Shown: positions 3,073 to 61,403 of the stretch, in pieces
Numbering within the stretch: position 1 is the stretch's first letter
How the letters are laid out: each line of letters opens with the position of its first letter
NCBI GenBank assembly: GCA_038727095.1
Contig: JAVYWK010000003.1
Span: 1 to 64,000, forward strand
Reading direction: 5' to 3'
Source of the DNA: Thermofilaceae archaeon
GTDB taxonomy: Archaea > Thermoproteota > Thermoprotei > Thermofilales > Thermofilaceae
DNA length: 64,000 nucleotides
The notes under the pieces: model-generated
Seen by the model: only the letters and a program-made list of their open reading frames with translations
What the model was told of the DNA's origin: nothing
Database searches by the model: none
Translations under genes and position numbers: made by a program

Positions 3073-3214
3073 GGGATCACGCGTGCGCAGGCTTGCACGC
3101 TTGCAAACGCGACACTATTCAGAAACTGTACAAAAAAATGCCTCCAACACGCAACGTAGGGTGGAGCACTGGACTGGGGCACCGGGGGCCGGCTGACACG
3201 AGGGGGTTTCCCGG

Positions 3215-4786
3215 TTAGGGTCTTGCTTCAACGAAGAGGCCGAGAGGCGCTCTCAAAGTGCAGCCGCTGGCAAACCTGTAGTAGAGAAGACTCTCCCTAA
3301 CGTAAACTTCAACAGACGAATCCGTGCCACAAACCATCCCGCCTTGGTTTGTGATACCTGCTACGGCTCCTCTTACAATGGGTACGCCGAGGGCTCCGAC
3401 GAAGCTGCGGAAGGCATCGATTGCGGATTCGGCCAGCGGTATCGACAACCTCGGGAGTACAGCATCGGCCACCACCGATATGAACGCGCCGACAGGCACC
3501 TGGAGAATCGTAGCATCACAGGGTACAAGAACTGGGTAGAGAGTACTAGTGCTAAGAACCAGGTTCTCGTCAACGTCGAGCCTTCCATCATCCAGCGGCG
3601 GGAAGCTCGTCAAAACCCTCCTCCACCGAGTCCCCCCGTAGAACCAGTCCAAGATACTGCCGTGCAACAACCAGAACTCGGTACCACCCTGAACAACGTT
3701 CCCAACCGTAAGAACATCTGCAACAAAAGCTTCAACCCGATCTTCAACCCTCCGGCAAACCCTCCCACCACCAGGAGTCAAACTACAGAAGAGAAAATCA
3801 CCAAAGCTTATAGAAAACCTACCCCAAACGAAGATCCAAGACGCCCGTGGCGGGCATACGCTAACTCCGTTACTGTAGGAGACGTAAGCATGGCTACCCA
3901 GGGTTGGGCCTGCAACGTTGAAGTCCACGGGTGGGAGAAGCCCATCGCTGATCCTATTGAAGATTTGGCCCGAAGCCCAGACTAAGCGGAAATTGCTGTT
4001 AAAGCTTAACGCGAAGCCGATCACGGCAGTGAGGTGTGGTGCTTGGCTGGATGGGTTGTTGAGGATGAGGATGGGTATCTTGATGTAGGTTACGCCGCTG
4101 GCGTTTCGGAAGTAGCTGGCCGGTAGAGTGGAGGTTAGGTTTTCCACTCTTACAACCGCTCTAACGTGGTACTCGTACCAGCTCGTGTAAAGGGGTTCAA
4201 CACCGGCAGAACCATCAGCCGGTTGAGGGTCGATTCTCTCCGCTAGCACTGGTTGCAGGTAGAGGGTTTCGCGGTTTACGAGTGGCACTGGCTCACCCCT
4301 CCACAAGTGTAGGATGTACCTGTACGCCTTCGGCTCGAGTAGTTCGCTCGGCTTGTACTCGATTGTTGTAGTACCGTGGTAGAGGAGTTGGCCGTTGGAC
4401 GCGTTGCCAACGTAGGCTCGAACAATCAAAGCTGTCGTGAGGGTTTCCGGGTCTCCACCCCTACTCTCCACCAGGTTGATCCAGCCTTCCGCAATCTTCT
4501 GCAGCTGCTGGTGGCTGATGTAGGCAGCACCCCTACCCCTGTAGCAGGAGTAGAGCAGCTTTACCGTGTCGCCGCCCATCGATGCTGGCGCAACCGCGTC
4601 GATGAATAAGCACCAAACCACATCCCTGCGAGCCAGCAAACCGGTTTCATCGATGTGCGAGTACAAGCGGAGTTCAATGTAGAAGCCCGGTGGAGCCTTA
4701 AGCGCGAGTAGCGCGAGAGCGGTAGCAGCTACAGACGCTAAAACGAGAGTAAGCGGCAGCAAATCAGGCCTACCGAGCTTCCACAC
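3215..4786 (-). CDS. Hypothetical secreted or membrane-anchored protein
   Basis: 523-aa ORF with an N-terminal hydrophobic signal/TM segment and a beta-rich composition. No family recognised. Confidence 0.6.
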   Translation of the reverse strand: MWKLGRPDLLPLTLVLASVAATALALLALKAPPGFYIELRLYSHIDETGLLARRDVVWCLFIDAVAPASMGGDTVKLLYSCYRGRGAAYISHQQLQKIAEGWINLVESRGGDPETLTTALIVRAYVGNASNGQLLYHGTTTIEYKPSELLEPKAYRYILHLWRGEPVPLVNRETLYLQPVLAERIDPQPADGSAGVEPLYTSWYEYHVRAVVRVENLTSTLPASYFRNASGVTYIKIPILILNNPSSQAPHLTAVIGFALSFNSNFRLVWASGQIFNRISDGLLPPVDFNVAGPTLGSHAYVSYSNGVSVCPPRASWIFVWGRFSISFGDFLFCSLTPGGGRVCRRVEDRVEAFVADVLTVGNVVQGGTEFWLLHGSILDWFYGGTRWRRVLTSFPPLDDGRLDVDENLVLSTSTLYPVLVPCDATILQVPVGAFISVVADAVLPRLSIPLAESAIDAFRSFVGALGVPIVRGAVAGITNQGGMVCGTDSSVEVYVRESLLYYRFASGCTLRAPLGLFVEARP

Positions 4787-5650
4787 ATCCGAAAGCAGCG
4801 CTCAAAAAGCTTTATTTCTTGTGTAAACCTGAACCTTTCAAGGCACTCCAAGGATCGACAAGCTACAAGCGTGCGATACCGCCTGTAGCCCTTTTCCCGC
4901 TGCTTGAGGACGGTTACACCGGCTGTAGTAGACTTCCAAACGCCTGGGAGCTGAAGCGGTGTTCTTGTACTCCTCCAACCGCTTGATCAATTCGTCTTCT
5001 ACCCCCCGCTCGACGTGGCGCTGCAGCCCTACAATCCCGTTTTTACCCTTCAGGGGGCTTCCCACCTACGAACCCGTTTGATCGCTACTGTTCTCCCTTA
5101 CTCTTTTTTATTCGAAAAGAGTTTTATAAAACACTTTAACCCTCTCCCGTGTTTAAGTTGAGCTCTAGGCTCGTAGAAGGGCGGAGTGGGACGGCGTAGC
5201 CCACCTTACAGGCGGCTGTTGAAGGCTCAGAAAGGGTCGTGCCTATAGCCTTGGGGTAGAGTTCCCGAGGGAACACTTGTCCGTAAATTCACCTCTTCCC
5301 ACATTCTCTCGATTGCACCTCTCGGGCATGCTCTAGGGAGGGGGTGCTGAGTAAGAGCTAACTGTGGAACACGTGCTGGTGAGAAAAGGGGAGGGAAAGG
5401 GGGATGATTACTGGAGCTTTTCAGGCCGCAAGCCCCCTCTAGATCACTCTCCCCACAGGCTGCTTGCCTAGCCCGTGGACGCAGGCGACTCTCGAGTTCA
5501 GCCTCGACCCCCCAGCTTCCGCGTGAGCCTCTCTAACCCTCTAAACCCTATCTGCACCCCTGATCGCCTTCTCGATCCTCACCCTCAGCCTCTCCTCGAT
5601 CCCCTCCCTACTCTCAACGTCGGAGCCTGCTGCAAGCCCGTGGAGGTGCT

Positions 5651-6052
5651 GCACAGCAGCGCGCTAGCGTGCCCACTCCTCCGAGAGGGACTGAGAGGAG
5701 GGATGAAACCCGGAGGGGATCAGTAACCCCCAAGGCACCGCATAAAAACGAAAATGGGACCGGGGGTTAGGATTACAGGGTCTTCAGAGTACGAATGAAC
5801 AGGGAAACGAGGAGTGCCCTCATTAGCCTTTACAACAGGATTGTGAAAAAGGATCCAAAGCTGCGCGCGAAGAGGGTGCGAACCCCCAACCGGCGCATCG
5901 GCGACGGGGCACTGAAAAGCGTTTAAGCTGCCGTCATAAGGCGATCGTGCCCCATGACCCGCCCCGGTCGTCCATGGCTAAAAGCCGGGAAGGCGGGGGG
6001 CAGTCCCTCGAGGAAAACCATTAAGGGGGAAAATGTGCACCAGGCGCGGATC
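5651..6052 (+). mobile_element. Internally deleted, non-autonomous copy of the TnpB-like element (N-terminal gene remnant fused to the omegaRNA-like right end)
   Basis: Translates as AQQRASVPTPPRG...ETRRGSVTPKAPHKNENGTGG*DYRVFRVRMNRETRSALISLYNRIVKKDPKL, matching both TnpB-like N-termini. Its 3' end CCCTCGAGGAAAACCATTAAGGGGGAAAATGTGCACCAGGCGCGGATC matches the element 1 end CCCTCGAGGAAAACCAGTGAAGGGGGAGATGTGCACCCGGCGCGGAAC. Left boundary approximate. Confidence 0.85.
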
Positions 6053-10893: not shown

Positions 10894-11739
10894 GTGGATC
10901 AGCGGTTCAGAGTTAACAGAGCAGCCGTAGAGCTTGTGGCACGCTACCTGAGTGAACCCTCTTCGAGAGAGCTCGTAGAGAGAGCGGAGCTTGCTGACCC
11001 TCAGCTGCAATCCGTAGCGAGGATCCTTTCGAAGTTCACGCAGCGCAGTGACGCCTTCTTCTTCACGCTAGGAGTCGCTGCTGTAAGTTACCAGCTCACT
11101 ACCAAGGGCGAGGAACACTGGTCCCTTGCGGCGGAGTATGCGGGGGGTGATCCGTGCGAAAGCCTCAGGAGCTTTGTGAAGAGGTCGCCCAGCTTGAAGC
11201 TCGCCAGGAGCGCCCGCCTGGCAAGGGTTGAGAAGCTCGTCGGGTTCTATCCCTTTTTCGCGGTTAAGCTCGACTTCTACCTGCGCGACCTCGAGGCCTT
11301 TAGGAAAGATCTTGCAAAGGCTCTTGAGGCGGATCAGGACGCGAAAACAATAGTTTTCGCAGTAAAGATGCTCTACTACGCGGCCAAGGCTTCCAGCCTG
11401 AGCATTGAGCCGCCCCCCTCCATACCAATCCCTGTCGACCGTAGGGTGTGCCTCATCAGCCTTACAAGCAGGGTAGTAGAGGGGGAACCCCCCACGCTTC
11501 AGGGGGCTAGGCTCCTGCTATCGAAAGCACCGAAACTAGTTGCCGAGGCTTGGGGGCTTGTGTGCGAAAAGAGCGGGGTACCACCCATCAAACTCGACGC
11601 ACTACTGTGGTTGCTGGGCGGTTGCTACGAACGCGCGGGGTCGCCAGAGGGGGCTCTCGATTGCGCCTTTAAGCTGCTGTCCCCTCCCCCGGGAGCAGCG
11701 GTCTCCCTGATGCGCGTCCTGCTCGGGCTCAGCCCGTAA
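10894..11739 (+). CDS. Archaeal 8-oxoguanine N-glycosylase/DNA lyase (AGOG-like)
   Basis: SYQL..KGEEHW, KTIVFAVKM, IPIPVD.RV and SGVPP..LD..LW motifs. Confidence 0.85.
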   Translation: MDQRFRVNRAAVELVARYLSEPSSRELVERAELADPQLQSVARILSKFTQRSDAFFFTLGVAAVSYQLTTKGEEHWSLAAEYAGGDPCESLRSFVKRSPSLKLARSARLARVEKLVGFYPFFAVKLDFYLRDLEAFRKDLAKALEADQDAKTIVFAVKMLYYAAKASSLSIEPPPSIPIPVDRRVCLISLTSRVVEGEPPTLQGARLLLSKAPKLVAEAWGLVCEKSGVPPIKLDALLWLLGGCYERAGSPEGALDCAFKLLSPPPGAAVSLMRVLLGLSP

Positions 11740-11960
11740 TCCGCGGGCGTGAAGTAAGCGACGATTTCACCGCTCTGCCAATCCCTCAACACTATGCGCG
11801 CTGCCTCCTCGACGTTAGGCTCCCCGCCCTTCCTCAGGAGGTTTCTCCTCCTCGCGATTTTCTCGAGCGCAGCATAAGGATCTTCGTCGTCCACTCCATA
11901 CTGCTTCAGAAGCACCTTCGAATCCTTCTTCTTCAGCAGATCTATCAGCTTGACGGCGGC
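11625..11960 (-). pseudogene. C-terminal fragment of a YlqF/RbgA-like GTPase, truncated at the element 1 right end
   Basis: LEKIARRRNLLRKGGEPNVEEAARIVLRDWQSG is the typical C-terminal domain of this family. All GTP-binding motifs are absent and the frame runs into the element at 11961. Confidence 0.75.
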
Positions 11961-12230
11961 GTTCCGCGCCGGGTGCACATCTCCCCCTTCACTGGTTTTC
12001 CTCGAGGGGCCCTCCCTTCCGCCTCCCGTGCTTCACGGCTTCCGCGCGGGGTGGCGGGGGAGGGTGTCATGGGTGGACTCGCCCGCCTTTCCGCGCACCG
12101 TCGCCGGTGCGCATCCCGGCGGGCTCACCCCCTCGTCGATCGCGCGGGCCCCCTGGAGCGCCCCCGGGCTCGACGCCCGGGTGGGTGTCCCGGGAAAGGG
12201 GCCGCCTGGGGGCTGGAGAGCGTGGGCCAT
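11961..12230 (-). ncRNA. Putative omegaRNA/reRNA scaffold of element 1
   Basis: Overlaps the low-complexity 3' end of the TnpB-like ORF. Contains the hairpin GCGCACCG-GCGA-CGGTGCGC (12093-12112) and motifs shared by all three copies. 5' end unknown. Confidence 0.6.
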
Positions 12231-13566
12231 TGCTGTGGGGCTGGTGCACCGGGTTGTTCGGATTGTGGAAGTTCGCTGCTAGCGCTTTAGGGTGCTCTCG
12301 GAGCCACTCCTTCAACCTGGGGAACATCCTCGCTGCGGCTCTAAAGCATGCATTGTAATCCCTGTCAGCGATTATTCCACAGTTACTACAGCCAAAGTAG
12401 CGGTTAGCGACCTCCTCGCACGGTGAATTACACAGGGGGCACCTCTTCCCACTGCTTCGAACTTCTGTGTACTGAGCACCCTCATACCGCGCCATGTTCT
12501 CGATGTATCTGCGGATTCGCCGTAGCGTTCGCTGCAGCTGGGTTCCCCTTAGGCTCCATTCGCTCGGAACGTCGATCAAAATAGCAACCTGCCCGTTGAC
12601 CTCTCGCACCAGATGGCGTAATTCGTTGAGTGTTTTCTCAATCCACACCCTATGTAGCTTCCTTACGTCTCTTTTTACTTTTCGGGCAAGAGCGGAGGCC
12701 CTCTCCGTCGTCAGAGTCCCAAACCGCTTAAGTGCCTTCTCCACCTTCTCTTTCAGTTCTGGGTTGGGAAGCCTCTCAAGGACGGCTTTCGGTGTTCCGC
12801 GCTCGGCGGCGCTCTGGAGTGCAGCGACGATCGCCTCGTGGAGGGCCGTGTTCGGCGGCTGCCAGCGGCGAGGAATCACTCGTAGAACCCTCCCCTCCTC
12901 ATCGAAGTCTATAATCAATCCGGCGAGACCATACGAGCTGTTCAGGTCCAGGCTAATGACCCGCCTAGGGAGAACCCCCGAGGCGGGATCCCTGAAGGCA
13001 ATTATCCTCGCTCGACCGTTACTGCACAGTTGGAACACGAAGGATGGTTTTGGCTGTAGTCTCAAGTCCTCCTCCAGCGCCTTCACTATGCTCGGCTGCA
13101 GCCCTACACGGATCCCCGCGCAGGGGATCCGCAGTTCCGCTCCGGTTAAATCGATCACCACGGGAGCGCTCCTCGATCCGTGGATCAGCGTCCCCCATTT
13201 CATAAATTTCACCTTCAAGTAGTACGGTGGCCTCCTCCACCTTTTCCTTCTTTTCCTGCGCTTTTCCGCCTCGTAATCCATCGCCTTCCAGCTTTCGTAG
13301 TAGAGGAAGCAGCATCGAGGTAGAGTTGGATCCCGATCTATCAACCTCCAGTAGAGCTTTGCAAACTGTCTACGCTCCTCTCTATTTAGTCGAGGCTTGA
13401 ATACCCTGAAGCCGCGGTCGCGATTGCCCACGCCCCCCGATTTTTTATCGTTGGGGACCGGGTGCCGGGGCGTCGCTCCCCCTCCCCCCGCCCCGAAGGA
13501 GGGGGTTGCAGCGTTCGTTAACCCTTGCCCCGCCCCCGGCCGCGGGGCTTCCGGAGGCCCACCCAT
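12067..13566 (-). CDS. Divergent TnpB-like RuvC/Zn-ribbon protein (element 1)
   Basis: RuvC-I VISLDLNSSYG, RuvC-II AILIDVP, SGKRCPLC...CSNC Zn ribbon, RuvC-III DRDYNA. Start ATG 13566 aligns with the element 2 start. Confidence 0.8.
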   Translation of the reverse strand: MGGPPEAPRPGAGQGLTNAATPSFGAGGGGATPRHPVPNDKKSGGVGNRDRGFRVFKPRLNREERRQFAKLYWRLIDRDPTLPRCCFLYYESWKAMDYEAEKRRKRRKRWRRPPYYLKVKFMKWGTLIHGSRSAPVVIDLTGAELRIPCAGIRVGLQPSIVKALEEDLRLQPKPSFVFQLCSNGRARIIAFRDPASGVLPRRVISLDLNSSYGLAGLIIDFDEEGRVLRVIPRRWQPPNTALHEAIVAALQSAAERGTPKAVLERLPNPELKEKVEKALKRFGTLTTERASALARKVKRDVRKLHRVWIEKTLNELRHLVREVNGQVAILIDVPSEWSLRGTQLQRTLRRIRRYIENMARYEGAQYTEVRSSGKRCPLCNSPCEEVANRYFGCSNCGIIADRDYNACFRAAARMFPRLKEWLREHPKALAANFHNPNNPVHQPHSNGPRSPAPRRPLSRDTHPGVEPGGAPGGPRDRRGGEPAGMRTGDGARKGGRVHP

Positions 13567-13820
13567 GGGCCCCCATCCGCTCCCCCACGGGAGCTTGAGC
13601 GTGAAGGATGCGGGGGGCTCACGAGCGGGCCACCGCAACCCCACAGCCGAAGGCAGGCACCCCTCGAGCAGCGCACAGCCGGAAAGCAGCGTCAGCCGAG
13701 CAGAGCATCGATCCGGGAACGAACGCCGAGAAGCACCTGATGGTTGAGCGTCGCAGAGGCCTCTCGAAGGGAGCAGCGGGAGCCGCAGCCTCAAGGGAGC
13801 CGAAGCGGTTGAAGCGGAAC

Positions 13821-14490
13821 GGCCCCAATCCCGGGTGCTCCCGGAAGCCCCGCGCGCCGGCGCGCCCCCAGTAGCCCTGAACGCTAACAGTGCGGTAGAC
13901 CGCCCCCGGGGAGCAGGGGTGCGGCCCTTTCCGCCGGCCCCTGCATTTGGCGGTGACCCCCTTGATTGGATGGGGGCCCCACACGAGTGGGAGCGCAGCC
14001 CGGGGCCGGCCGTTAAAGGCTGCGCCCCGCGAGGGCTAGAGGCCCAGCTTTGCGAGTTTAAGCCCGTATTCCTCCCCTCCAGCAGTCTGCCTGTAGGCTC
14101 TCGGCCTGCAGGCTGGCTGCCCCTCTACAGTTGTAGGGCGCTCGGCCGCTACAACTGCTTCACAGGCACCCCCCTACAAGGGGGATCCGCCTTTTTGGGG
14201 CGGAGGGTGGAGAGGGGAGGGTTACAGGCTGATTAAAAGACTGGGCCTCCAGAATCCCCCCAGTTGCAAGCCGCGCACCGCGCACGGGGTAGGATGCTCG
14301 CTTTAGCGTCCATCCGCTTCCAGTGCCGCTCTAGTGCCGCGTTAGTGTTCTGCTGTCTTAGTGTTCTGCCGCCCCCAAGCCCCTCTTGTCCACCGAGCCT
14401 CAGCGGGGTTTGGGGGTTTTGTTTGCTCGGCCCGGTGGACGCACCTGTTAGGCTTGTGGAGCAATGGTATTTATTCCTAACTCCAGTTTG
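13821..14490 (+). ncRNA. Putative large structured RNA (or ssDNA structure) of unknown class, copy 1
   Basis: Many nested stems, GNRA-type loops, G-U pairs mostly on the + strand, and a compensatory change relative to copy 2. No conserved reading frame. Confidence 0.5.
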
Positions 14491-14509
14491 ACGCTGTGAG
14501 GGGGATGGG

Positions 14510-14737
14510 ATGTGCATTACGGCTTGCAGTCTGAGCTTCTTCACGCTGCTGAGGGGTTGTACGGAGGGGTTTAGGGTGAGCTTGAAGTTGAGCTACTTGG
14601 CGGAGGCGCTGGAGGCGTTCATGATGGCCGGGTTGAGGCCGGGGAGCATTGCGTTCACGCGCGGGGAGGGGCGCGCAGTCTTAATCCAGCTGAGGGGTGG
14701 GTGGCTGAAAGCGTACGTAGCCGCAGCCCTCGAGTGA
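14510..14737 (+). CDS. Conserved 75-aa element-encoded protein, weak resemblance to a sliding-clamp C-terminal half-domain
   Basis: Conserved with 59119-59346 through synonymous changes (AEALEAF), an in-frame indel and the same stop position. G-rich RBS-like sequence and TATTTATT upstream. Confidence 0.6.
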   Translation: MCITACSLSFFTLLRGCTEGFRVSLKLSYLAEALEAFMMAGLRPGSIAFTRGEGRAVLIQLRGGWLKAYVAAALE

Positions 14738-14863
14738 CTCTTTCCCTATAGGTTTATTTCCTATTTTTCCTTGAAGCTTATACGTACTATAGAATATGTT
14801 TTGTAATACTTTCGGTGAACTATTCTTAAAAAGCTTTTAGGCTTACCAAACTTGAGGGTCGGC

Positions 14864-15025
14864 GTGGACTTGACAGGGTTCATCAGGCTTGCGGCGAAGC
14901 GGGGTGAGAAGATCCTAGTCACACCGTGCGACGGTGCGGTGCGCTTCCTAGCGGTGAAGAGCCATTGGGCTGGAAGGGTGGAGGCAAGTAATTTACCGAC
15001 AATGATTACCTGTTGCTTGTGCTAA
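14864..15025 (+). CDS. Hypothetical 53-aa protein
   Basis: GTG-start ORF MDLTGFIRLAAKRGEKILVTPCDGAVRFLAVKSHWAGRVEA... downstream of an AT-rich promoter-like tract. Its stop overlaps the next ATG (TAATG). Confidence 0.35.
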   Translation: MDLTGFIRLAAKRGEKILVTPCDGAVRFLAVKSHWAGRVEASNLPTMITCCLC

Positions 15026-29566: not shown

Positions 29567-29703
29567 TGGAGCCCCGGCCGGGCTTCGAACCCGGGTCCTC
29601 CGTGCGGGAGAACCCGCTCTCCGGCTTTCCTGGCTCTCCATAAGCTCGGCTGCTCATCGAGGCTTACGAGGCCGGCGCTCGTACCAGGCTGAGCTACCGG
29701 GGC
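29567..29703 (-). tRNA. tRNA-Thr(CGT) with two introns (37/38: 29627-29664; 45/46: 29598-29618) and encoded CCA
   Basis: Acceptor GCCCCGG/CCGGGGC, U73, CCA; D-arm GCTC/GAGC; anticodon stem CCGGC/GCCGG with CT-CGT-A; T-arm CCGGG-TTCGAAG-CCCGG. Relaxed bulge-helix-bulge motifs at both introns and a TATTAA box upstream. Confidence 0.88.
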
Positions 29704-55788: not shown

Positions 55789-56361
55789 GTGGAGGACCAG
55801 CGTCTAAGGCGTCTAGCTGAGGCAAAGTCCTACCTCCAAAGGAGGATCGAGGAGCTGGAGGGGGAGCTCGAGCTGCTCAAGCTTCTAGTAAACATCGTTG
55901 ACGCGGCACTCTCTCAGGAGAGCTTCGTGCGAGCCTCCGAGCTCCCACGCGAAGCGCCAGCCGGCTACGAGGCCCCAACCCGCCCGGAGCCCTCTGGTAT
56001 GGGTTCGCTGGTCTCGGAGTCGTCGATCGTGTCGAGAGAAGGGCGTGAAATGGCGAAGTTCTCGGTGTACGAGAGGGGCATCGTGGTAAAACCCGTAATA
56101 GAGCTACCGCTGGATTCACCGCCCCTGAGGAGCTTCTTCGTCGCGAAGATCCTCGACGGGTACAAGAAGAAGGATGAGGACCTCGTCCGAGCGGGGGAGC
56201 TGGATAGTGAGGAGGCATTCGATTACGGGATCGAGGAGGAGGGCGGACTCGTAAAGGAGATCAGAATCAGGAACTACAGGGATAAGAGGAGGCTTGACGA
56301 GATCAGGAGCGCGCTCCGCTGGACCCTAAACAGGGTGCTGGAGAGAACGACCGGCTCCTAA
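55789..56361 (+). CDS. Hypothetical protein (N-terminal coiled coil)
   Basis: 190-aa ORF. Its stop codon is supplied by the second unit of the 32-bp duplication. Confidence 0.7.
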   Translation: MEDQRLRRLAEAKSYLQRRIEELEGELELLKLLVNIVDAALSQESFVRASELPREAPAGYEAPTRPEPSGMGSLVSESSIVSREGREMAKFSVYERGIVVKPVIELPLDSPPLRSFFVAKILDGYKKKDEDLVRAGELDSEEAFDYGIEEEGGLVKEIRIRNYRDKRRLDEIRSALRWTLNRVLERTTGS

Positions 56362-56391
56362 ACAGGGTGCTGGAGAGAATGACCGGCTCCT
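56325..56391. repeat. 32-bp tandem duplication (one mismatch) abutting the element 2 right end
   Basis: CCTAAACAGGGTGCTGGAGAGAA(C/T)GACCGGCT at 56325-56356 and 56357-56388, then CCT. Confidence 0.95.
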
Positions 56392-56393
56392 CG

Positions 56394-56720
56394 GTTCCGC
56401 GCCGGGTCACTCCCCCCTTCATTGGCTTTGGCCTCTGAGGGCCCGCCCCCCGGCCTCCCCAGCCCCGATTTGGGGCCGTGGATGGCCGGAGCGGGCGTCA
56501 TGGGGTCGGCCGCTTATGGCGGCCTACTCGCCCGCCTCCCGGCGCACCGTCACCGGTGCGCCGAACGGCGGGGTCGGTAGGCCCCTCGGTTGGCGCGCGG
56601 AAGCGCCCGGGCACAGCGCCGAGCGCCTGGAGGCGCCCAGCGGCGTCCCGGGAACGGGGCCCGGAAAGGGGTTCAGGATGCGGGGAACCCGGGGGGCCTA
56701 GGCCCCAGGGGTTCTTCGCG
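56394..56720 (-). ncRNA. Putative omegaRNA/reRNA scaffold of element 2
   Basis: GC-rich noncoding tract after the stop codon. Hairpin GGCGCACCG-GTGA-CGGTGCGCC (56541-56562), shared CCCATGAC and AAGGGGG motifs, end GGCGCGGAAC. Confidence 0.65.
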
Positions 56721-58163
56721 TTAAGGCAGCTTAGGTGGTGGCGCTGAGCCTAGGAGATCTGTGGGGTGGTTGCGCAACCACCCCCGTAGCTCCTCAGCGA
56801 GCCACGGTAGCGCTGTAACAGGGGCTAGGAAGGAGCTGCAGTAGTCGCGGTTCCACGCTATGTTGCAGTTACTGCAGTAGAAGTAGCTTGGCCTTTTCCT
56901 CCTCTCCCCCTCGGGGGAGTAGGGCGCACCCCGCTCCCCGCAGAGGGGGCAGCGCTTCCCTGACGCTCTTGTTTCCTTGAAGTAGCCGCCCTCGTACCTC
57001 ACCGTCACTCTCATCCTCCTCGTGACCCGCAGCAGGCTCTGCTGCCATGGCTTCCGCTGCAGGCTCTCGGGGGAGGGCTTGTCCACGAGGACGACCACCC
57101 TCCCCCCGTAGGCTCTTGCCAAGTTTCTGACTATTTCGGATAGTTTACGTTCTTTCCTCATGACTCGGGCCCCGTGGGCCCTGTGGATGATGCGCACGAT
57201 CTTTTCGGCGTTGCTCGGAGTGGGCGGCAGCTCCGGGAACTCCTCCCGGAGCCTCTCGTAGGCCTCGTGAAGCCGTGCGTAGGTCTGCGCTGACTGGCGC
57301 CCCTTATGTACGCCGGAAGCGAGGTCAGCGCAGCTTTGCAGCAGTTTTATCAGCCTCCACTCCTTTTTGTGAAACTTGATCCTTCGGCGTAGAACCCTTC
57401 TCACTCCTTCGTCGCCGACCTCGAAGGCGAGCACCGTAATGCCATGCCTGCTGTTCACGTCCACCCCCACGGCCACGAACGGCCGCGGGAAGTGGACGTC
57501 CCTGAAGTCCGTGCATTCTTCGCGCACAACCACCCACCACCTCGGCGGAGTTCGGTGCGCCACTAGCCGGAGCTCCCCGCTCTGGCAGAGGAACAGCGTG
57601 AACGTTGGCGGGGGAGCCAGCTCCAGCTCCCCCCTCAGCGCCTCGCACAGCTTCGGAGGCAGTGGCACCTCGAGGAGTGTGCCGATCCTCAGGACGCAGC
57701 GGTCAAGATCGACGATGCAGACTGCGTTGTGAGCACCGTACTCTCGCCCGCCAAACCGGAATCGAACCAGCAGGGGTATGGGCGGGAGCCTCTTCGGCGG
57801 CGTCCGCTTCCCTGCCTTAATTCTATTCTCAAAAGCGGCGAGGCGCATTTTCTTCCATTCCTCCCCATAGTACAGTAGTCCCTTTAGAATAGCGCTCCCG
57901 CCCCCCAAAATCGCTTTCACAATCATAGTGTAAAGTTCTTTTAGTCTCTCCCGGAGTACCGCATTCGTTTCAATCTTAAAGACCCTGTACCCCTCCCCCG
58001 GGGCCTTCTTGTTTTTACGCGAGGCCTTGGGGGTTGCTGCCCCCCTCCGGGTTTCACCGGGCAGAGCCCGGATCCCCCCGGAAGAGGTGGGCACCTTAAC
58101 GCCCTGCTGTTTGGCCCTTTCCTCCCCCCGCCCCCATCGGGGGGTTTGGGGCTCCGGCGCCAT
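56721..58163 (-). CDS. Divergent TnpB-like RuvC/Zn-ribbon protein (element 2)
   Basis: RuvC-I AVGVDVNSRHG, RuvC-II VVLVDKP, ASGKRCPLC...CSNC, RuvC-III NRDYCS. Confidence 0.8.
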   Translation of the reverse strand: MAPEPQTPRWGRGEERAKQQGVKVPTSSGGIRALPGETRRGAATPKASRKNKKAPGEGYRVFKIETNAVLRERLKELYTMIVKAILGGGSAILKGLLYYGEEWKKMRLAAFENRIKAGKRTPPKRLPPIPLLVRFRFGGREYGAHNAVCIVDLDRCVLRIGTLLEVPLPPKLCEALRGELELAPPPTFTLFLCQSGELRLVAHRTPPRWWVVVREECTDFRDVHFPRPFVAVGVDVNSRHGITVLAFEVGDEGVRRVLRRRIKFHKKEWRLIKLLQSCADLASGVHKGRQSAQTYARLHEAYERLREEFPELPPTPSNAEKIVRIIHRAHGARVMRKERKLSEIVRNLARAYGGRVVVLVDKPSPESLQRKPWQQSLLRVTRRMRVTVRYEGGYFKETRASGKRCPLCGERGAPYSPEGERRKRPSYFYCSNCNIAWNRDYCSSFLAPVTALPWLAEELRGWLRNHPTDLLGSAPPPKLP

Positions 58164-58444
58164 CCGGACCCCCATCCGCTCCCTCAGCTACACACCCCTC
58201 CGCGGGAGCTTCATCCAGGGCGGAGGGATGCGGGGGGCCGGCACAGCCGGAAACCCTAAACCCCCGTAGGGGGCTGGGGAGCGTTGAGCGCGGTACTTCT
58301 CGGCAGCTTTGAGCGAGCTCGAGCGGCGTACAGTTCAGCGCGGAAGCAGACTCCGGCAGCCGAGCGAAGCGGGAGCGAGCAGCACAGTCGAGCAGCCGAG
58401 GTGAGCAGCCCCTTAAAGATAGCAGTAGCCGCAGCTTCAAACCA

Positions 58445-59100
58445 GGCCCCAATCCCGGGCAGCCCGGGAGCCCCGCGCGCCGGCGCGCCCCCCAGTAGCG
58501 CTGAACGCTAACAGTGCGGTAGACCGCCCCCGGGGGAGCAGGAGTGCGGCCCTTTCCGCCGGCCCCTACGCTAGGCGGCGACCCCCTTAATTGGATGGGG
58601 GCCCCACGCGAGTGGGAGCGCAGCCCGGGGCCGGCCGTTATAGGCTGCGCCCCGCGAGGGCTGGAGGCCCGGGTTTAAGCCCGTATTCCTCCCCTCCAGC
58701 AGCCTGCCTGTAGGCTCTCGGCCTGCAGGCTGGCTGCCCCTCTACAGTTGTAGAGCGCTCGGCTGCTACAACTGCTTCACAGGCACCCCCCTACAAGGGG
58801 GACCCGCCTTTTTGGGGCGGAGGGTTGGAGAAGGGAGGGTTACAGGCTGATTAAAAGACTGGGCCTCCAGAATCCCCCAGTTGCAAGCCGCGCACGGAGC
58901 GGGGAGACCGCTTTAGCGTCCATCCACTTCCAGTGCCGCTCTAGTGCCGCGATAGTGTCCTGCTGTCTTCGTGTTCTGCCGCCCCCAAACCCCTCTTGTC
59001 CACCGAGCCTCGCCGGGGTTTGGGGGTTTTGTTTGCTCGGCCCGGTGGACGCACCTGTTAGGCTTGTGGAGTGCATGTATTTATTCCTAACTCCAGTTTG
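58445..59100 (+). ncRNA. Putative large structured RNA (or ssDNA structure) of unknown class, copy 2
   Basis: Near-identical to 13821-14490 with structure-preserving substitutions. Confidence 0.5.
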
Positions 59101-59118
59101 ATGCTGTGGGGGGATGGG

Positions 59119-59346
59119 GTGTGCATTACGGCTTGCAGTCTGAGCTTCTTCACGCTGCCGGATTGCATGGAGGAGTTCAGGGTGAGCGTGCGGTTGAGCA
59201 ACGTAGCGGAGGCTCTTGAAGCGTTCATGATGGCCGGCTTGGTGCCGGGGAGCGTTGCGTTCACCCCGGTCGGGGAGGGGCGCGCAGTCTTAATCCAGCT
59301 GAGGGGAGGGTGGCTGAGGGCGTACATAGTCGCGACAGCCGAGTGA
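59119..59346 (+). CDS. Conserved 75-aa element-encoded protein, copy 2
   Basis: GTG start aligned with ATG 14510: CITACSLSFFTL...AEALEAFMMAGL.PGS.AFT..GEGRAVLIQLRGGWL.AY. Confidence 0.6.
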   Translation: MCITACSLSFFTLPDCMEEFRVSVRLSNVAEALEAFMMAGLVPGSVAFTPVGEGRAVLIQLRGGWLRAYIVATAE

Positions 59347-59530: not shown

Positions 59531-61354
59531 TTAAGCGGCTTCGCTGGGTGGAGTCTTGGGTAGTGCGACCTTCTTCTGCCGCTTGTACATTTCCACCAGC
59601 TCCTCCTCCGTTGTCGCATCCTCCGGGCTCTTGTCAAACCTGTACCTTCCCGTAAACCTGGGGAAGCGGATGGCGAGGCCCGCGTCGGGCTTCACTTCGC
59701 CCAGCGCGCACGTGTGCATGGGGCTGAGCGTTATCTCCGCGCCCACGATCTCCAAGACGATGGTAGGGACGAACCAGACGTCAGCTTCCATCTTCGATAC
59801 AACTCTGGGGTGCTTGTGGTCTATCCTGTAGGGCTCGAGGATCTTGGGTAGCTGGAGCAGATCCTCGTCCGAGAAGCCGCTGCCCACCTTGCACACAGTC
59901 TTGAAAACGTCCTCCTCCGGGCTGTATGCTGCCATCAGGAGTGCTCCGTAGGTCCCCGCCCTCTTTCCCCTGCCGTAGAACGCCCCGACCACGACGAGAT
60001 CAACGGTGTCGGTCATCTCGTACCTGTAGTCCCTCTTGAACTTGATCCAGAGCCAGCCGCGCGCCCCCATCTGGTAGATCGATTCCCCGCTCAACGATTT
60101 GCACATGATGCCCTCGCAGCCCTCGGCCACAGCCTCCTCAAAGAACCTCATCAATTCCTCTGAGTCCTTAACGATGGACGACTTGGCCAGCCTGAACCGC
60201 TCGCTCTCCTCGATCACCTCAGCCAGCCTCCTCCTCCTTTCCGCTAGCGGGGTGTCGATTAGGCTCTCTCCGTCGACGTAGAGGAGGTCGAAGAGGTACA
60301 CAGCGACGGGGTACTTCTCCATGGCTTCCTCGATATCGTACTTCCTCCTCCTATGCATCAGCTCCTGGAAGGGTAGCATCTCGCCGGTATCGGGGTTCAG
60401 CGCGACGATCTCGCCCTCCAGGATGGCCTCCTCCGCCCTCACGTAACGCCTCACCATATCGACAACGTCCGGGTAGTGGCTCGTGATGTTCTCCAGCCTT
60501 CTGCTGAAGAGTTTGACTTCCCCGCGCCCCTTGTGGGCCTGGACCCTCTCACCGTCGTACTTGTACTCGGTGATGCAGGAGCCCCCCAGCTTGGCGATGA
60601 TCTCGGCGGGGTCGCTCAACCGCTCAGCCAGCATCGGCTTCACGGGTATGCCCACGCTGATTTTAACCTCCTTCAAACCTTCGGGGCCGCGCTCCGCCAG
60701 CAGCTTAGCTATGTAGCCCAGGTCGGGGTGAACGTTGTAAGCCCTTTCAACAGCCGCTCTCGCCGCCTTGGAGCCCGTGAAAGCTGAAGAGAGCGCGTCC
60801 AGGATCGTCATGTCTGCAACGCCCAGCCTCAGCTTCCCTGTAACCATCCTCAGCAGGTACCTCGCCTCCTTCGGACTGGCGCTCTTCAGCAGTGCGGCGA
60901 GCGTCGCTATCTTCGTGTCCTGAGCCCCGGGGCCCGCGGCTCGGGCGATCTTGAGGAGAGAATCGTACACCCTACCAACGGTTAGAGCTTTAGCCTGGAG
61001 CTCCTCTCCCACGCCGAAGAAATCGAGAATTGAGGAGGGCCTACCCCTCTTCATCAGCTCTTCAGCCGCTAGCCCGAGGTCTCCCAACCTCTTGTAAGCG
61101 GCTTCCACCTCCTTCAAGCCCAGGCCGAGAGCTAGGGCAACCGCTCTTATCGCCAGCTTCTCCGCTACGCCCAGCTCCGGTGCCTCGTAGTCAGGGCCCA
61201 GGGCGCCGCGCGTAAGGTACACCAGCTTATCGATCACCTCGGGAGGAGTCTTCTTGAAGAGCGAGACGAGTAGATCCGTCATTGCAAGCCGGCTGCTCGT
61301 AGCCTCAATACGCTCGTAGAACTCCACCAACGTTGAAAACTCCAGATCAGCCAT
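59531..61354 (-). CDS. lig: ATP-dependent DNA ligase
   Basis: [30 protein letters not shown] and IRFPRF motifs. Confidence 0.97.
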
Positions 61355-61403
61355 AGGATCCCATTGGTTCAATGAACACTCAAGCTCTTATCCTTAACTC
61401 TGC

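Follow-up and report, generated by a model that had tools for sequence, protein, structure and literature searches.

A conserved folded domain in the left-end module of TnpB transposons from Thermofilaceae archaea

A folded domain was characterized within a TnpB-encoding transposon of a Thermofilaceae archaeon (GenBank assembly GCA_038727095.1). The DNA analyzed, referred to below as the window, comprises the first 64,000 nucleotides (nt) of contig JAVYWK010000003.1. The stretch under study begins at position 13821, where an earlier note, made from the letters alone, had described 13821-14260 as one large multi-stem structure with covariation, favoring an RNA of the + strand. This stretch is the non-coding interior of a TnpB-only element of the IS200/IS605-like kind, about 2.8-3.0 kb long, a context that had not been spotted in the earlier note. 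Its core represents a family of conserved folded domains, new and of narrow distribution, located in a portable left-end module of TnpB transposons; the domain is real, conserved, previously undescribed and found within one archaeal family. We consider the chances about even that it acts as a folded single strand of RNA within a non-coding transcript or a long leader.

Fold and conservation of the core

The source genome (G000) consists of 1.86 Mb in 52 contigs, is 92% complete, and has its contigs designated by C-numbers. The repeat that contains the stretch extends beyond the flagged interval, with limits in the window at 13766/13821-14737. Further copies were located at C3:58445-59346 (89.5% identical; copy 2) and C38:6421-7387 (90.5%), and pieces of the repeat lie at the ends of contigs C25, C52, and C41. 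The core (14036-14254) is 97% identical among the three full copies, versus about 89-90% for the flanks. Its closing stem is formed by GAGGCCCAGCTTT...AAGCC...CCTCCCCTCC, which pairs with GGAGAGGGGAGG...GGCT...AAAAGACTGGGCCTC, and no bulge-helix-bulge splicing motif was seen in this stem by visual inspection of the predicted fold.

The predicted stability of the core was compared with that of shuffled sequences and gave z-scores of -8.44 for the + strand, -7.75 for the - strand, and -7.21 with DNA parameters, none of 200 shuffles being equally stable. The same comparison for 13821-14035, which contains the tetraloop hairpins and the GCGCAGCC/GGCTGCGC pairing, gave z-scores of -0.44 and +0.20; here 69 and 119 of the 200 shuffles were equally stable. 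For 14255-14447 the scores were -0.85 and +0.33. For the entire 631 nt the values were -3.6 (+) and -4.7 (-) versus 20 shuffles. The proposal of one large structure was therefore retained for the core and abandoned for the remainder, the flanks folding like shuffles. Only the core folds better than chance, and the hairpins and the second copy are real.

The pairings listed in the earlier note were recovered from the sequence. The hairpin CAGTTGTAG-GGC-GCTCG-GCC-G-CTACAACTG is present at 14128-14157 and shows the double change from G-C to A-T in copy 2 (58745-58774), the copies on C38 and C25 retaining G-C. The GCAGTC/GGCTGC pairing occurs in copy 1 only, with GCAGCC in the other two full copies, and the CCCAC-(A/G)CGA-GTGGG hairpin has the loop GCCA on C38. 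The CCC-GCGA-GGG hairpin, the GCGCAGCC/GGCTGCGC pairing, and the long-range closers GAGGCCC/GGGCCTC (14039-45 / 14245-51) and CCTCCCCTCC/GGAG-GGGAGG were found as described. The covariation claimed for these elements was thin within the genome. The three-copy consensus fold of the + strand contains 21 variable pairs (one changed on both sides, 12 on one side, and eight broken) and that of the - strand contains 32 (two, 18, and 12, respectively), and one-sided changes kept a pair about as often as pairs were broken.

Covariation became real once diverged relatives of the core were added. A covariance model (R1) was built from the three G000 copies of the core only and searched against 41 genomes of the order. 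It matched G001:C104:613-825, in a genome of the same genus, with 45 bits and an E-value of 2e-8 per genome. This was the sole full-length match outside G000 with E < 0.03 among the 41 genomes; a partial match in G015 scored 19.7 bits. In the alignment of G000 with G001, 97.1% of the cells are paired and 23 of 84 pairs are changed on both sides, a count to be taken as an upper view given that the alignment was fitted to the model and favors pairing. The chance level was 8.3 +/- 2.3 two-sided changes in shuffles, 0 of 500 reaching 23, and 2-5 in slid controls. The G001 copy alone folds into the same architecture, with z-scores of -6.65 and -8.89.

In G010, which belongs to another genus, four full and two partial copies were found using a second model (R2) with laxer filters together with BLAST, and the copies fold with z-scores of -6.7 and -8.2. 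BLAST with the G010 sequence identified six places in that genome and none in 22 other genomes of the family. A block of the form TCACAGG...ACCCCC(C)T.ACAAGGGGG...CC(G/A)CC is common to G010, G000, and G001. Conservation across species is limited to the core: a model of the 3' flank (R3) had no match in the G001 locus or in four sister loci, and the 5' flank scored 28 against the G001 locus versus 29.6 +/- 6.8 for shuffles, which is no significant likeness. When R2 was run across 120 genomes of the class, the sole addition was a match in G449 (E 0.009) with no tnpB nearby. As judged from these alignments and predicted structures, the fold of the core is conserved and its covariation real once diverged relatives are included.

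The domain is not assignable to a known RNA family, as the earlier note had anticipated. A scan of the window with Rfam (release 15) at gathering thresholds gave only a tRNA at 29570-29703, and the Infernal/Rfam search that it had recommended, run on 13300-15000 at E<=10, gave five chance-level matches to microRNA or viral families of 16-18 bits versus cut-offs of 58-84. The G001 locus matched snoR9 with 25.7 bits, versus a cut-off of 90. BLAST searches of the stretch against the 41 genomes of the order matched, outside the source genome, only the part containing the small open reading frame (ORF) of the transposon's left end, the matches being in G002 and, weakly, in G020, and 13 of 400 other genomes of the phylum had merely 22-49 nt matches (E 8e-4 to 8e-3). 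No match to the stretch was found in phage and plasmid collections. A 20-mer scan of metagenome contigs returned two records that are alike in the 20-mer only; a 24-nt degenerate motif occurred in one record of the genome contigs (L082) and in none of the viral contigs; and a TnpB-based locus search in genome contigs produced 78 pattern matches, none of which was confirmed. The accessible parts of the literature on archaeal TnpB, IStrons, and Thermofilum non-coding RNA or insertion sequences describe no such element. TnpB clades with non-coding DNA upstream of the gene, which would bear on the novelty of the domain, may be included in the supplementary tables of PMC10691335.

The transposon and exchange of its left-end module

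Copy 1 of the transposon spans 11961 to ~14800 and copy 2 spans 56391 to ~59405. Each carries a TnpB gene with PF07282. TnpB genes (RuvC-like plus zinc ribbon) are a feature of the IS200/IS605 family, and so are the conserved ends and the multiple copies, including deletion derivatives, found here. About 900 nt of non-coding DNA separate tnpB on the - strand from a divergent small ORF on the + strand, and this interval contains the domain. Full-length tnpB genes of G000 are t1 and t2 in the window, one on C38, and one on C41, a fifth PF07282 match being a fragment. The stretch lies upstream of tnpB in all four, the C41 copy being cut by the contig end ~115 nt in. The t1 frame is open to 13794, and its likely start is the ATG at 13566. 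The segment 13500-13699 folds with a z-score of -5.0 on the - strand.

The terminus of the right end (RE), 3' of tnpB, was matched by BLAST at C3:56391, C38:4416, C41:2117, on C34, C21, and C1, and at position 6050 of the window. The RE folds with z-scores of -2 to -3 in copy 1 and -4 to -6 in copy 2, and the guide (omega) RNA of TnpB would be expected in this region 3' of tnpB. In deletion derivatives on C21 and C1 the RE is joined directly to the small-ORF module; the two are ~70% alike over 580 nt and have unrelated flanks, so the RE-to-small-ORF unit moved as one element. The same joint (12112->14661) was present in all four hot-spring DNA runs compared. Deletion derivatives were located at 5642-6050 (tnpB N-terminal fragment plus RE) and at C21:15903-16345 and C1:101924-102324 (RE plus left-end module); the one on C21 adjoins an apparent tRNA gene. 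A search for the Y1 transposase (PF01797) gave no match in G000, whose 92% completeness leaves absence unproven, and the control was positive in six of 14 known genomes. The genome has no detected Y1 transposase despite its four TnpB elements and several deletion derivatives.

Related elements without the insert were identified in G020, from another genus of the family. There a small ORF (151 aa) and tnpB are only ~200 nt apart, around the sequence ATAAATA, the same as in the TATA-box-like motif before the small ORF of the window, and some copies keep merely the last codons of the small ORF. An nhmmer search for the stretch in the upstream regions of 26 tnpB loci of relatives matched only the G000 copies. 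Among the tnpB genes, t2 and that of C38 are 76% identical, and they are 69-75% identical to a G020 gene; that of C41 is 61-63% identical to other G020 genes; and for t1 the identity is 43-46% with the C41 group and 30-32% with t2. The G000 tnpB genes are assigned by these identities to three old lineages. Between lineages they are 30-44% identical, yet the left module is ~90% identical. Breakpoints vary by copy, lying at ~13766-13821 in copy 1 and at about codon 60 of tnpB in C41, which indicates exchange between copies rather than repeated insertion. The left-end module comprises the tnpB leader, the domain, and the small ORF, and is near-identical within the genome while joined to very different tnpB genes.

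The G020-type start codon and TATA-like motif appear to be gone beside tnpB in G000, where the ORF would begin ~30-45 codons upstream, behind a strong hairpin. This arrangement suggests that expression of tnpB in G000 may depend on the inserted module. The N-terminal parts of t1 (13045-13566) and t2 (58040-58175) carry extensions of ~30-45 codons compared with the G020 relatives, and the position of the relatives' ATG is occupied by R/G. The invariant D in the aligned VDKP/VDNP/IDVP of the TnpB proteins falls at the usual acidic residue of what we take to be the second RuvC motif.

The linkage to tnpB recurs outside the source genome. All four full G010 copies lie ~430-500 nt upstream of a tnpB in divergent orientation; the two partial pieces have no tnpB within 1.5 kb. 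The linked G010 genes include two classical OrfB_IS605-like types ~30% identical to each other, a third that is 63-66% identical to one of them, and one of the t1/t2 family; they represent three lineages or more, between which identity is ~30% or no alignment can be made. The left module of G010 extends from the first tnpB codons to a 154-aa ORF and includes the domain. Its copies are 90-94% identical even where the adjoining tnpB genes cannot be aligned as DNA, and this mosaic repeats the pattern seen in G000. In G001 the neighboring tnpB is of another type, without BLASTP likeness to t1 or t2.

Nature of the domain

A transcript or long leader containing the domain would be made from the internal divergent promoter region of the transposon, and the RNA domain would act in cis on the expression or processing of the transposon genes. 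The 8-nt and several 1-nt insertions or deletions between copies, together with ORFs that lack a Pfam family, speak against protein coding; the candidates considered, at 13835-14236 (+) and 14233-14544 (-), have no Pfam family and have their frames broken by these changes. The idea of a replication origin found no sign in its support.

Several results weigh against the RNA reading or narrow the family. The + strand preference proposed earlier was not borne out: stability favors the + (element) strand by 6-8 kcal/mol in all three copies of G000 and the tnpB-sense strand by 15-20 kcal/mol in both G001 and G010. If a single RNA strand were under selection, the bias should be consistent, and here it flips between species. 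The related statement that most non-Watson-Crick pairs are G-U on the + strand holds weakly, with 30/23/22 such pairs on the + strand versus 22/21/18 on the - strand and equal energies, and among 85 pairs predicted by both strands two variable pairs fit the + strand only and two fit the - strand only. Runs of five or more T residues can stop archaeal transcription, and inside the domain a T5 occurs on the element strand of G000 and a T6 (G001) and a T7 (G010) on the tnpB-sense strand. A TATA-like motif is absent just outside the domain in G001 and G010. The public sequencing runs matching part of the stretch (18 rows from seven hot-spring studies) were all DNA, with no RNA run among them; their contigs were short unitigs and held no variants beyond the genome's own copies. 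The family is known from three species only, the G010 copies score merely 23-33 bits and are aligned inconsistently by the model, and the count of compensating changes is subject to the reservation given above. Six sister copies of the neighboring tnpB element in G001 share with the C104 copy only 1488-2884, which is the gene itself; this places the domain 660 nt beyond the shared part, and its tie to the element is looser there, with one domain only among 13 matches of that tnpB family.

The transposons in question belong to a group in which single-stranded DNA is itself a substrate: IS200/IS605 elements move as single strands whose ends are recognized as folded DNA. The domain could accordingly be a DNA signal, part of an enlarged left end read in trans by the transposition machinery, and such a role would account for a module that stays uniform within a genome although the tnpB genes differ. 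The fold is as significant with DNA parameters (z -7.2), neither strand shows a consistent G-U bias across species, the compensating changes run from Watson-Crick to Watson-Crick and are explained by any single strand, and the left module and right end are homogenized within genomes. However, no Y1 transposase was found in the 92% complete G000, and the G001 domain lies outside the part common to other copies. Mobile deletion derivatives keep the RE and the small-ORF module without the domain, and the G020 relatives also lack it, so the domain is not needed for mobility. We rank this DNA signal as a tentative second choice, at about one chance in four. A relic is less likely than either the RNA or the DNA signal, and quite unlikely in absolute terms. 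It would be a small palindromic element resembling a miniature inverted-repeat transposable element (MITE) that landed in the divergent promoter region and now hitch-hikes, functionless, by recombination. Its length of ~200-220 bp, its ends forming a long imperfect inverted repeat, its optional presence among related transposons, the breakpoints that differ by copy, and the spread of the module through exchange between copies are all in keeping with such an origin. But there are no solo copies: all full model matches in G000, G001, and G010 adjoin tnpB, two partial G010 pieces lying apart, and dispersed solo copies as in MITEs were found neither in G000 nor in G001 (one copy) nor in G010. The four internal hairpins and the closing stem keep their pairing through two-sided changes between species, which is not expected of neutral decay, and the core is the best-conserved part of the stretch.

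Likewise less likely than the two leading explanations, and very unlikely by itself, is an archaeal counterpart of IStrons or another ribozyme, in which the tnpB-sense strand would yield an RNA that splices or cleaves itself and so frees host transcripts of the element or processes transposon RNA. IStrons are group I introns fused to an IS200/IS605 or IS607 element with tnpB, and the large folded non-coding part 5' of tnpB and the separate, presumed 3' guide-RNA region of the present element, within one mobile element, resemble them. The layout of a 5' structured RNA followed by tnpB and a 3' guide RNA is given in the consulted part of bioRxiv 10.1101/2023.11.20.567912, and the tnpB-sense strand folds better in two of three species. 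Against this, models of group I introns, group II introns, and small ribozymes had no match on either strand, even with the E<=10 limit, and none matched at the G001 locus. For group I this covers the catalytic core (P3-P9 and the G-binding site); for group II no Rfam model matched, no domain V/VI was found, and no 5' GUGYG boundary was seen at the repeat limits. Unlike the insertions of IStrons, that of copy 2 is intergenic: it sits between the stop codons of convergent ORFs 55789-56361 (+) and 59531-61372 (-), where there is nothing to splice and no host gene in sense orientation. The T6 and T7 runs fall on the tnpB-sense strand in G001 and G010, and the sections consulted of a 2014 survey report no IStrons from Archaea (PMC4227781).

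Other known systems were compared on the same footing. TnpB omega RNA (reRNA) is, like the domain, a structured element tied to tnpB and carried by the same transposon. The sections consulted of PMC10691335 place omega RNA at the 3' end of tnpB, reaching the right end, unlike the domain, which lies 470 nt upstream of the tnpB start codon in a divergent intergenic region; a separate conserved folding region (11961-12203 / 56391-56720) already occupies the 3' position. The omega RNA of IscB and IsrB (HEARO RNA) is similar in being folded, 200-300 nt long, and situated upstream of the gene for a transposon nuclease. The differences here are a TnpB-like protein whose sole Pfam hit is Cas12f1-like TNB, the lack of any Rfam match, and the position of the domain away from the transposon end, the place required of a guide. 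Hairpins are also known from the left end and 5' untranslated region of IS200. With these, with palindrome-associated transposable elements (PATEs), and with MITEs, the transposon shares a folded left part of an IS200/IS605-family element and short deletion derivatives, although the domain is far larger (a 219-nt multi-branch structure) and is absent from deletion derivatives and from related full elements.

Cas12 descends from TnpB nucleases, which serve as compact genome editors and whose known RNA partner is located at the 3' end of the gene. The domain described here is a second conserved folded element, near-identical within a genome while joined to tnpB genes sharing 30% identity or less, and it recurs at the same place and in the same orientation in two genera. 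Should the favored RNA explanation hold, with the RNA controlling or assisting TnpB, these systems would gain a new component, and hyperthermophiles would offer a case of modules being swapped between transposon lineages. A bolder extension is that it constitutes a new class of transposon-borne structured RNA, a common partner of many unrelated TnpB proteins in this archaeal family, acting as a second RNA beside the guide or as a processing or regulatory ribozyme-like element and exchanged as a cassette because it adapts TnpB to the host; we regard this as rather unlikely, at perhaps one chance in five. Should it instead be a DNA signal or a relic, the domain remains the mark of an unusual archaeal TnpB architecture of ~3 kb with a divergent small gene.

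Flanks and other features of the window

The features of the two transposon copies are listed in Table 1. The TATA-box-like sequence upstream of the small ORF is a putative promoter element.

Table 1. Positions of the domain, its flanks, and the associated transposon features in the window
Feature	Positions	Strand	Remarks
Right end (RE), copy 1	11961-12066	-	Conserved, strongly folding, 3' of tnpB; conservation extends into the ORF to 12203
tnpB t1	12067-13566	-	PF07282 Cas12f1-like_TNB, E 5.2e-8; alignment with three paralogs
Hairpin CCCCCATCCGCTCCC...GGATGCGGGGGG	13570-13618		Directly upstream of the tnpB start codon; in all four copies, loops variable
Purine-rich (GAGC/GAAGC) spacer	13620-13820		Poorly conserved between copy 1 and the others; folding z ~0
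5' flank of core	13821-14035		~90% identity between copies; many local hairpins; stability at shuffled level
Core domain	14036-14254		219 nt; interrupted closing stem of ~40 bp around four hairpins
3' flank of core	14255-14447		Four imperfect direct repeats and two overlapping inverted repeats
TATA-box-like TATTTATT	14468-14475	+	35 nt before the small ORF
Small ORF, 75 aa	14510-14737	+	Transposon left end; also in short deletion derivatives
Copy 2, right end and tnpB t2 (56721-58175)	56391-58175	-	PF07282; shared RE terminus
Copy 2 of the structured stretch	58445-59101		Core at 58661-58872; its closing stem has lost 8 nt from the 5' arm
Copy 2, small ORF	59071-59346	+	Left-end module runs ~60 nt past the stop codon in most copies

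In the 3' flank, four imperfect direct repeats of the form (C/T)AGTG(CC/TT) occupy 14322-14372, ~100-140 nt upstream of the TATA-like motif of the small ORF, and the copy on C25 lacks exactly one 11-nt repeat unit. These repeats may be a protein-binding site. They are followed by two overlapping inverted repeats, both strong, at 14375-14417 and 14390-14443, with TTTTGTTT on the + strand at 14419-14426. Within 14375-14443, CCCCCAAGCCCC pairs with GGGGTTTGGGGG, which is followed by TTTTGTTT, and GTCCACCGAGC pairs with GCTCGGcccGGTGGAC. The inverted repeats may form alternative structures or a + strand terminator.

The small ORF is in frame in all four transposon copies, with a ratio of nonsynonymous to synonymous variation (pN/pS) of 0.14-0.70. 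It belongs to a family of small proteins of 75-154 aa encoded divergently from tnpB (14510-14737, 59071-59346, L055:851-1306 on the - strand, and L092:3949-4410) that share the motif EALEAF..AGL.PG...GE.RAV, have a pN/pS of ~0.45, and are present in more copies than tnpB, also in G002. The small ORF has no Pfam family and no Atlas match, and it resembles the G010 ORF only weakly (E 0.008-0.025 in a four-sequence search).

In G020, a transposon copy on C2 (L047) appears to split a host gene in sense orientation, the two halves at 1056-1463 and 3099-3410 resembling one protein. Beside copy 1 in the window, a 117-aa ORF (11625-11978, - strand) starts inside the RE and overlaps the gene for AGOG glycosylase (10894-11739) at its end; this ORF, which belongs to no Pfam family, may be a gene fragment. 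The tRNA at 29570-29703 lies on the - strand and was scored at 39.1 bits by Rfam, ARAGORN reporting none in the whole window; its spread over 134 nt implies an intron.

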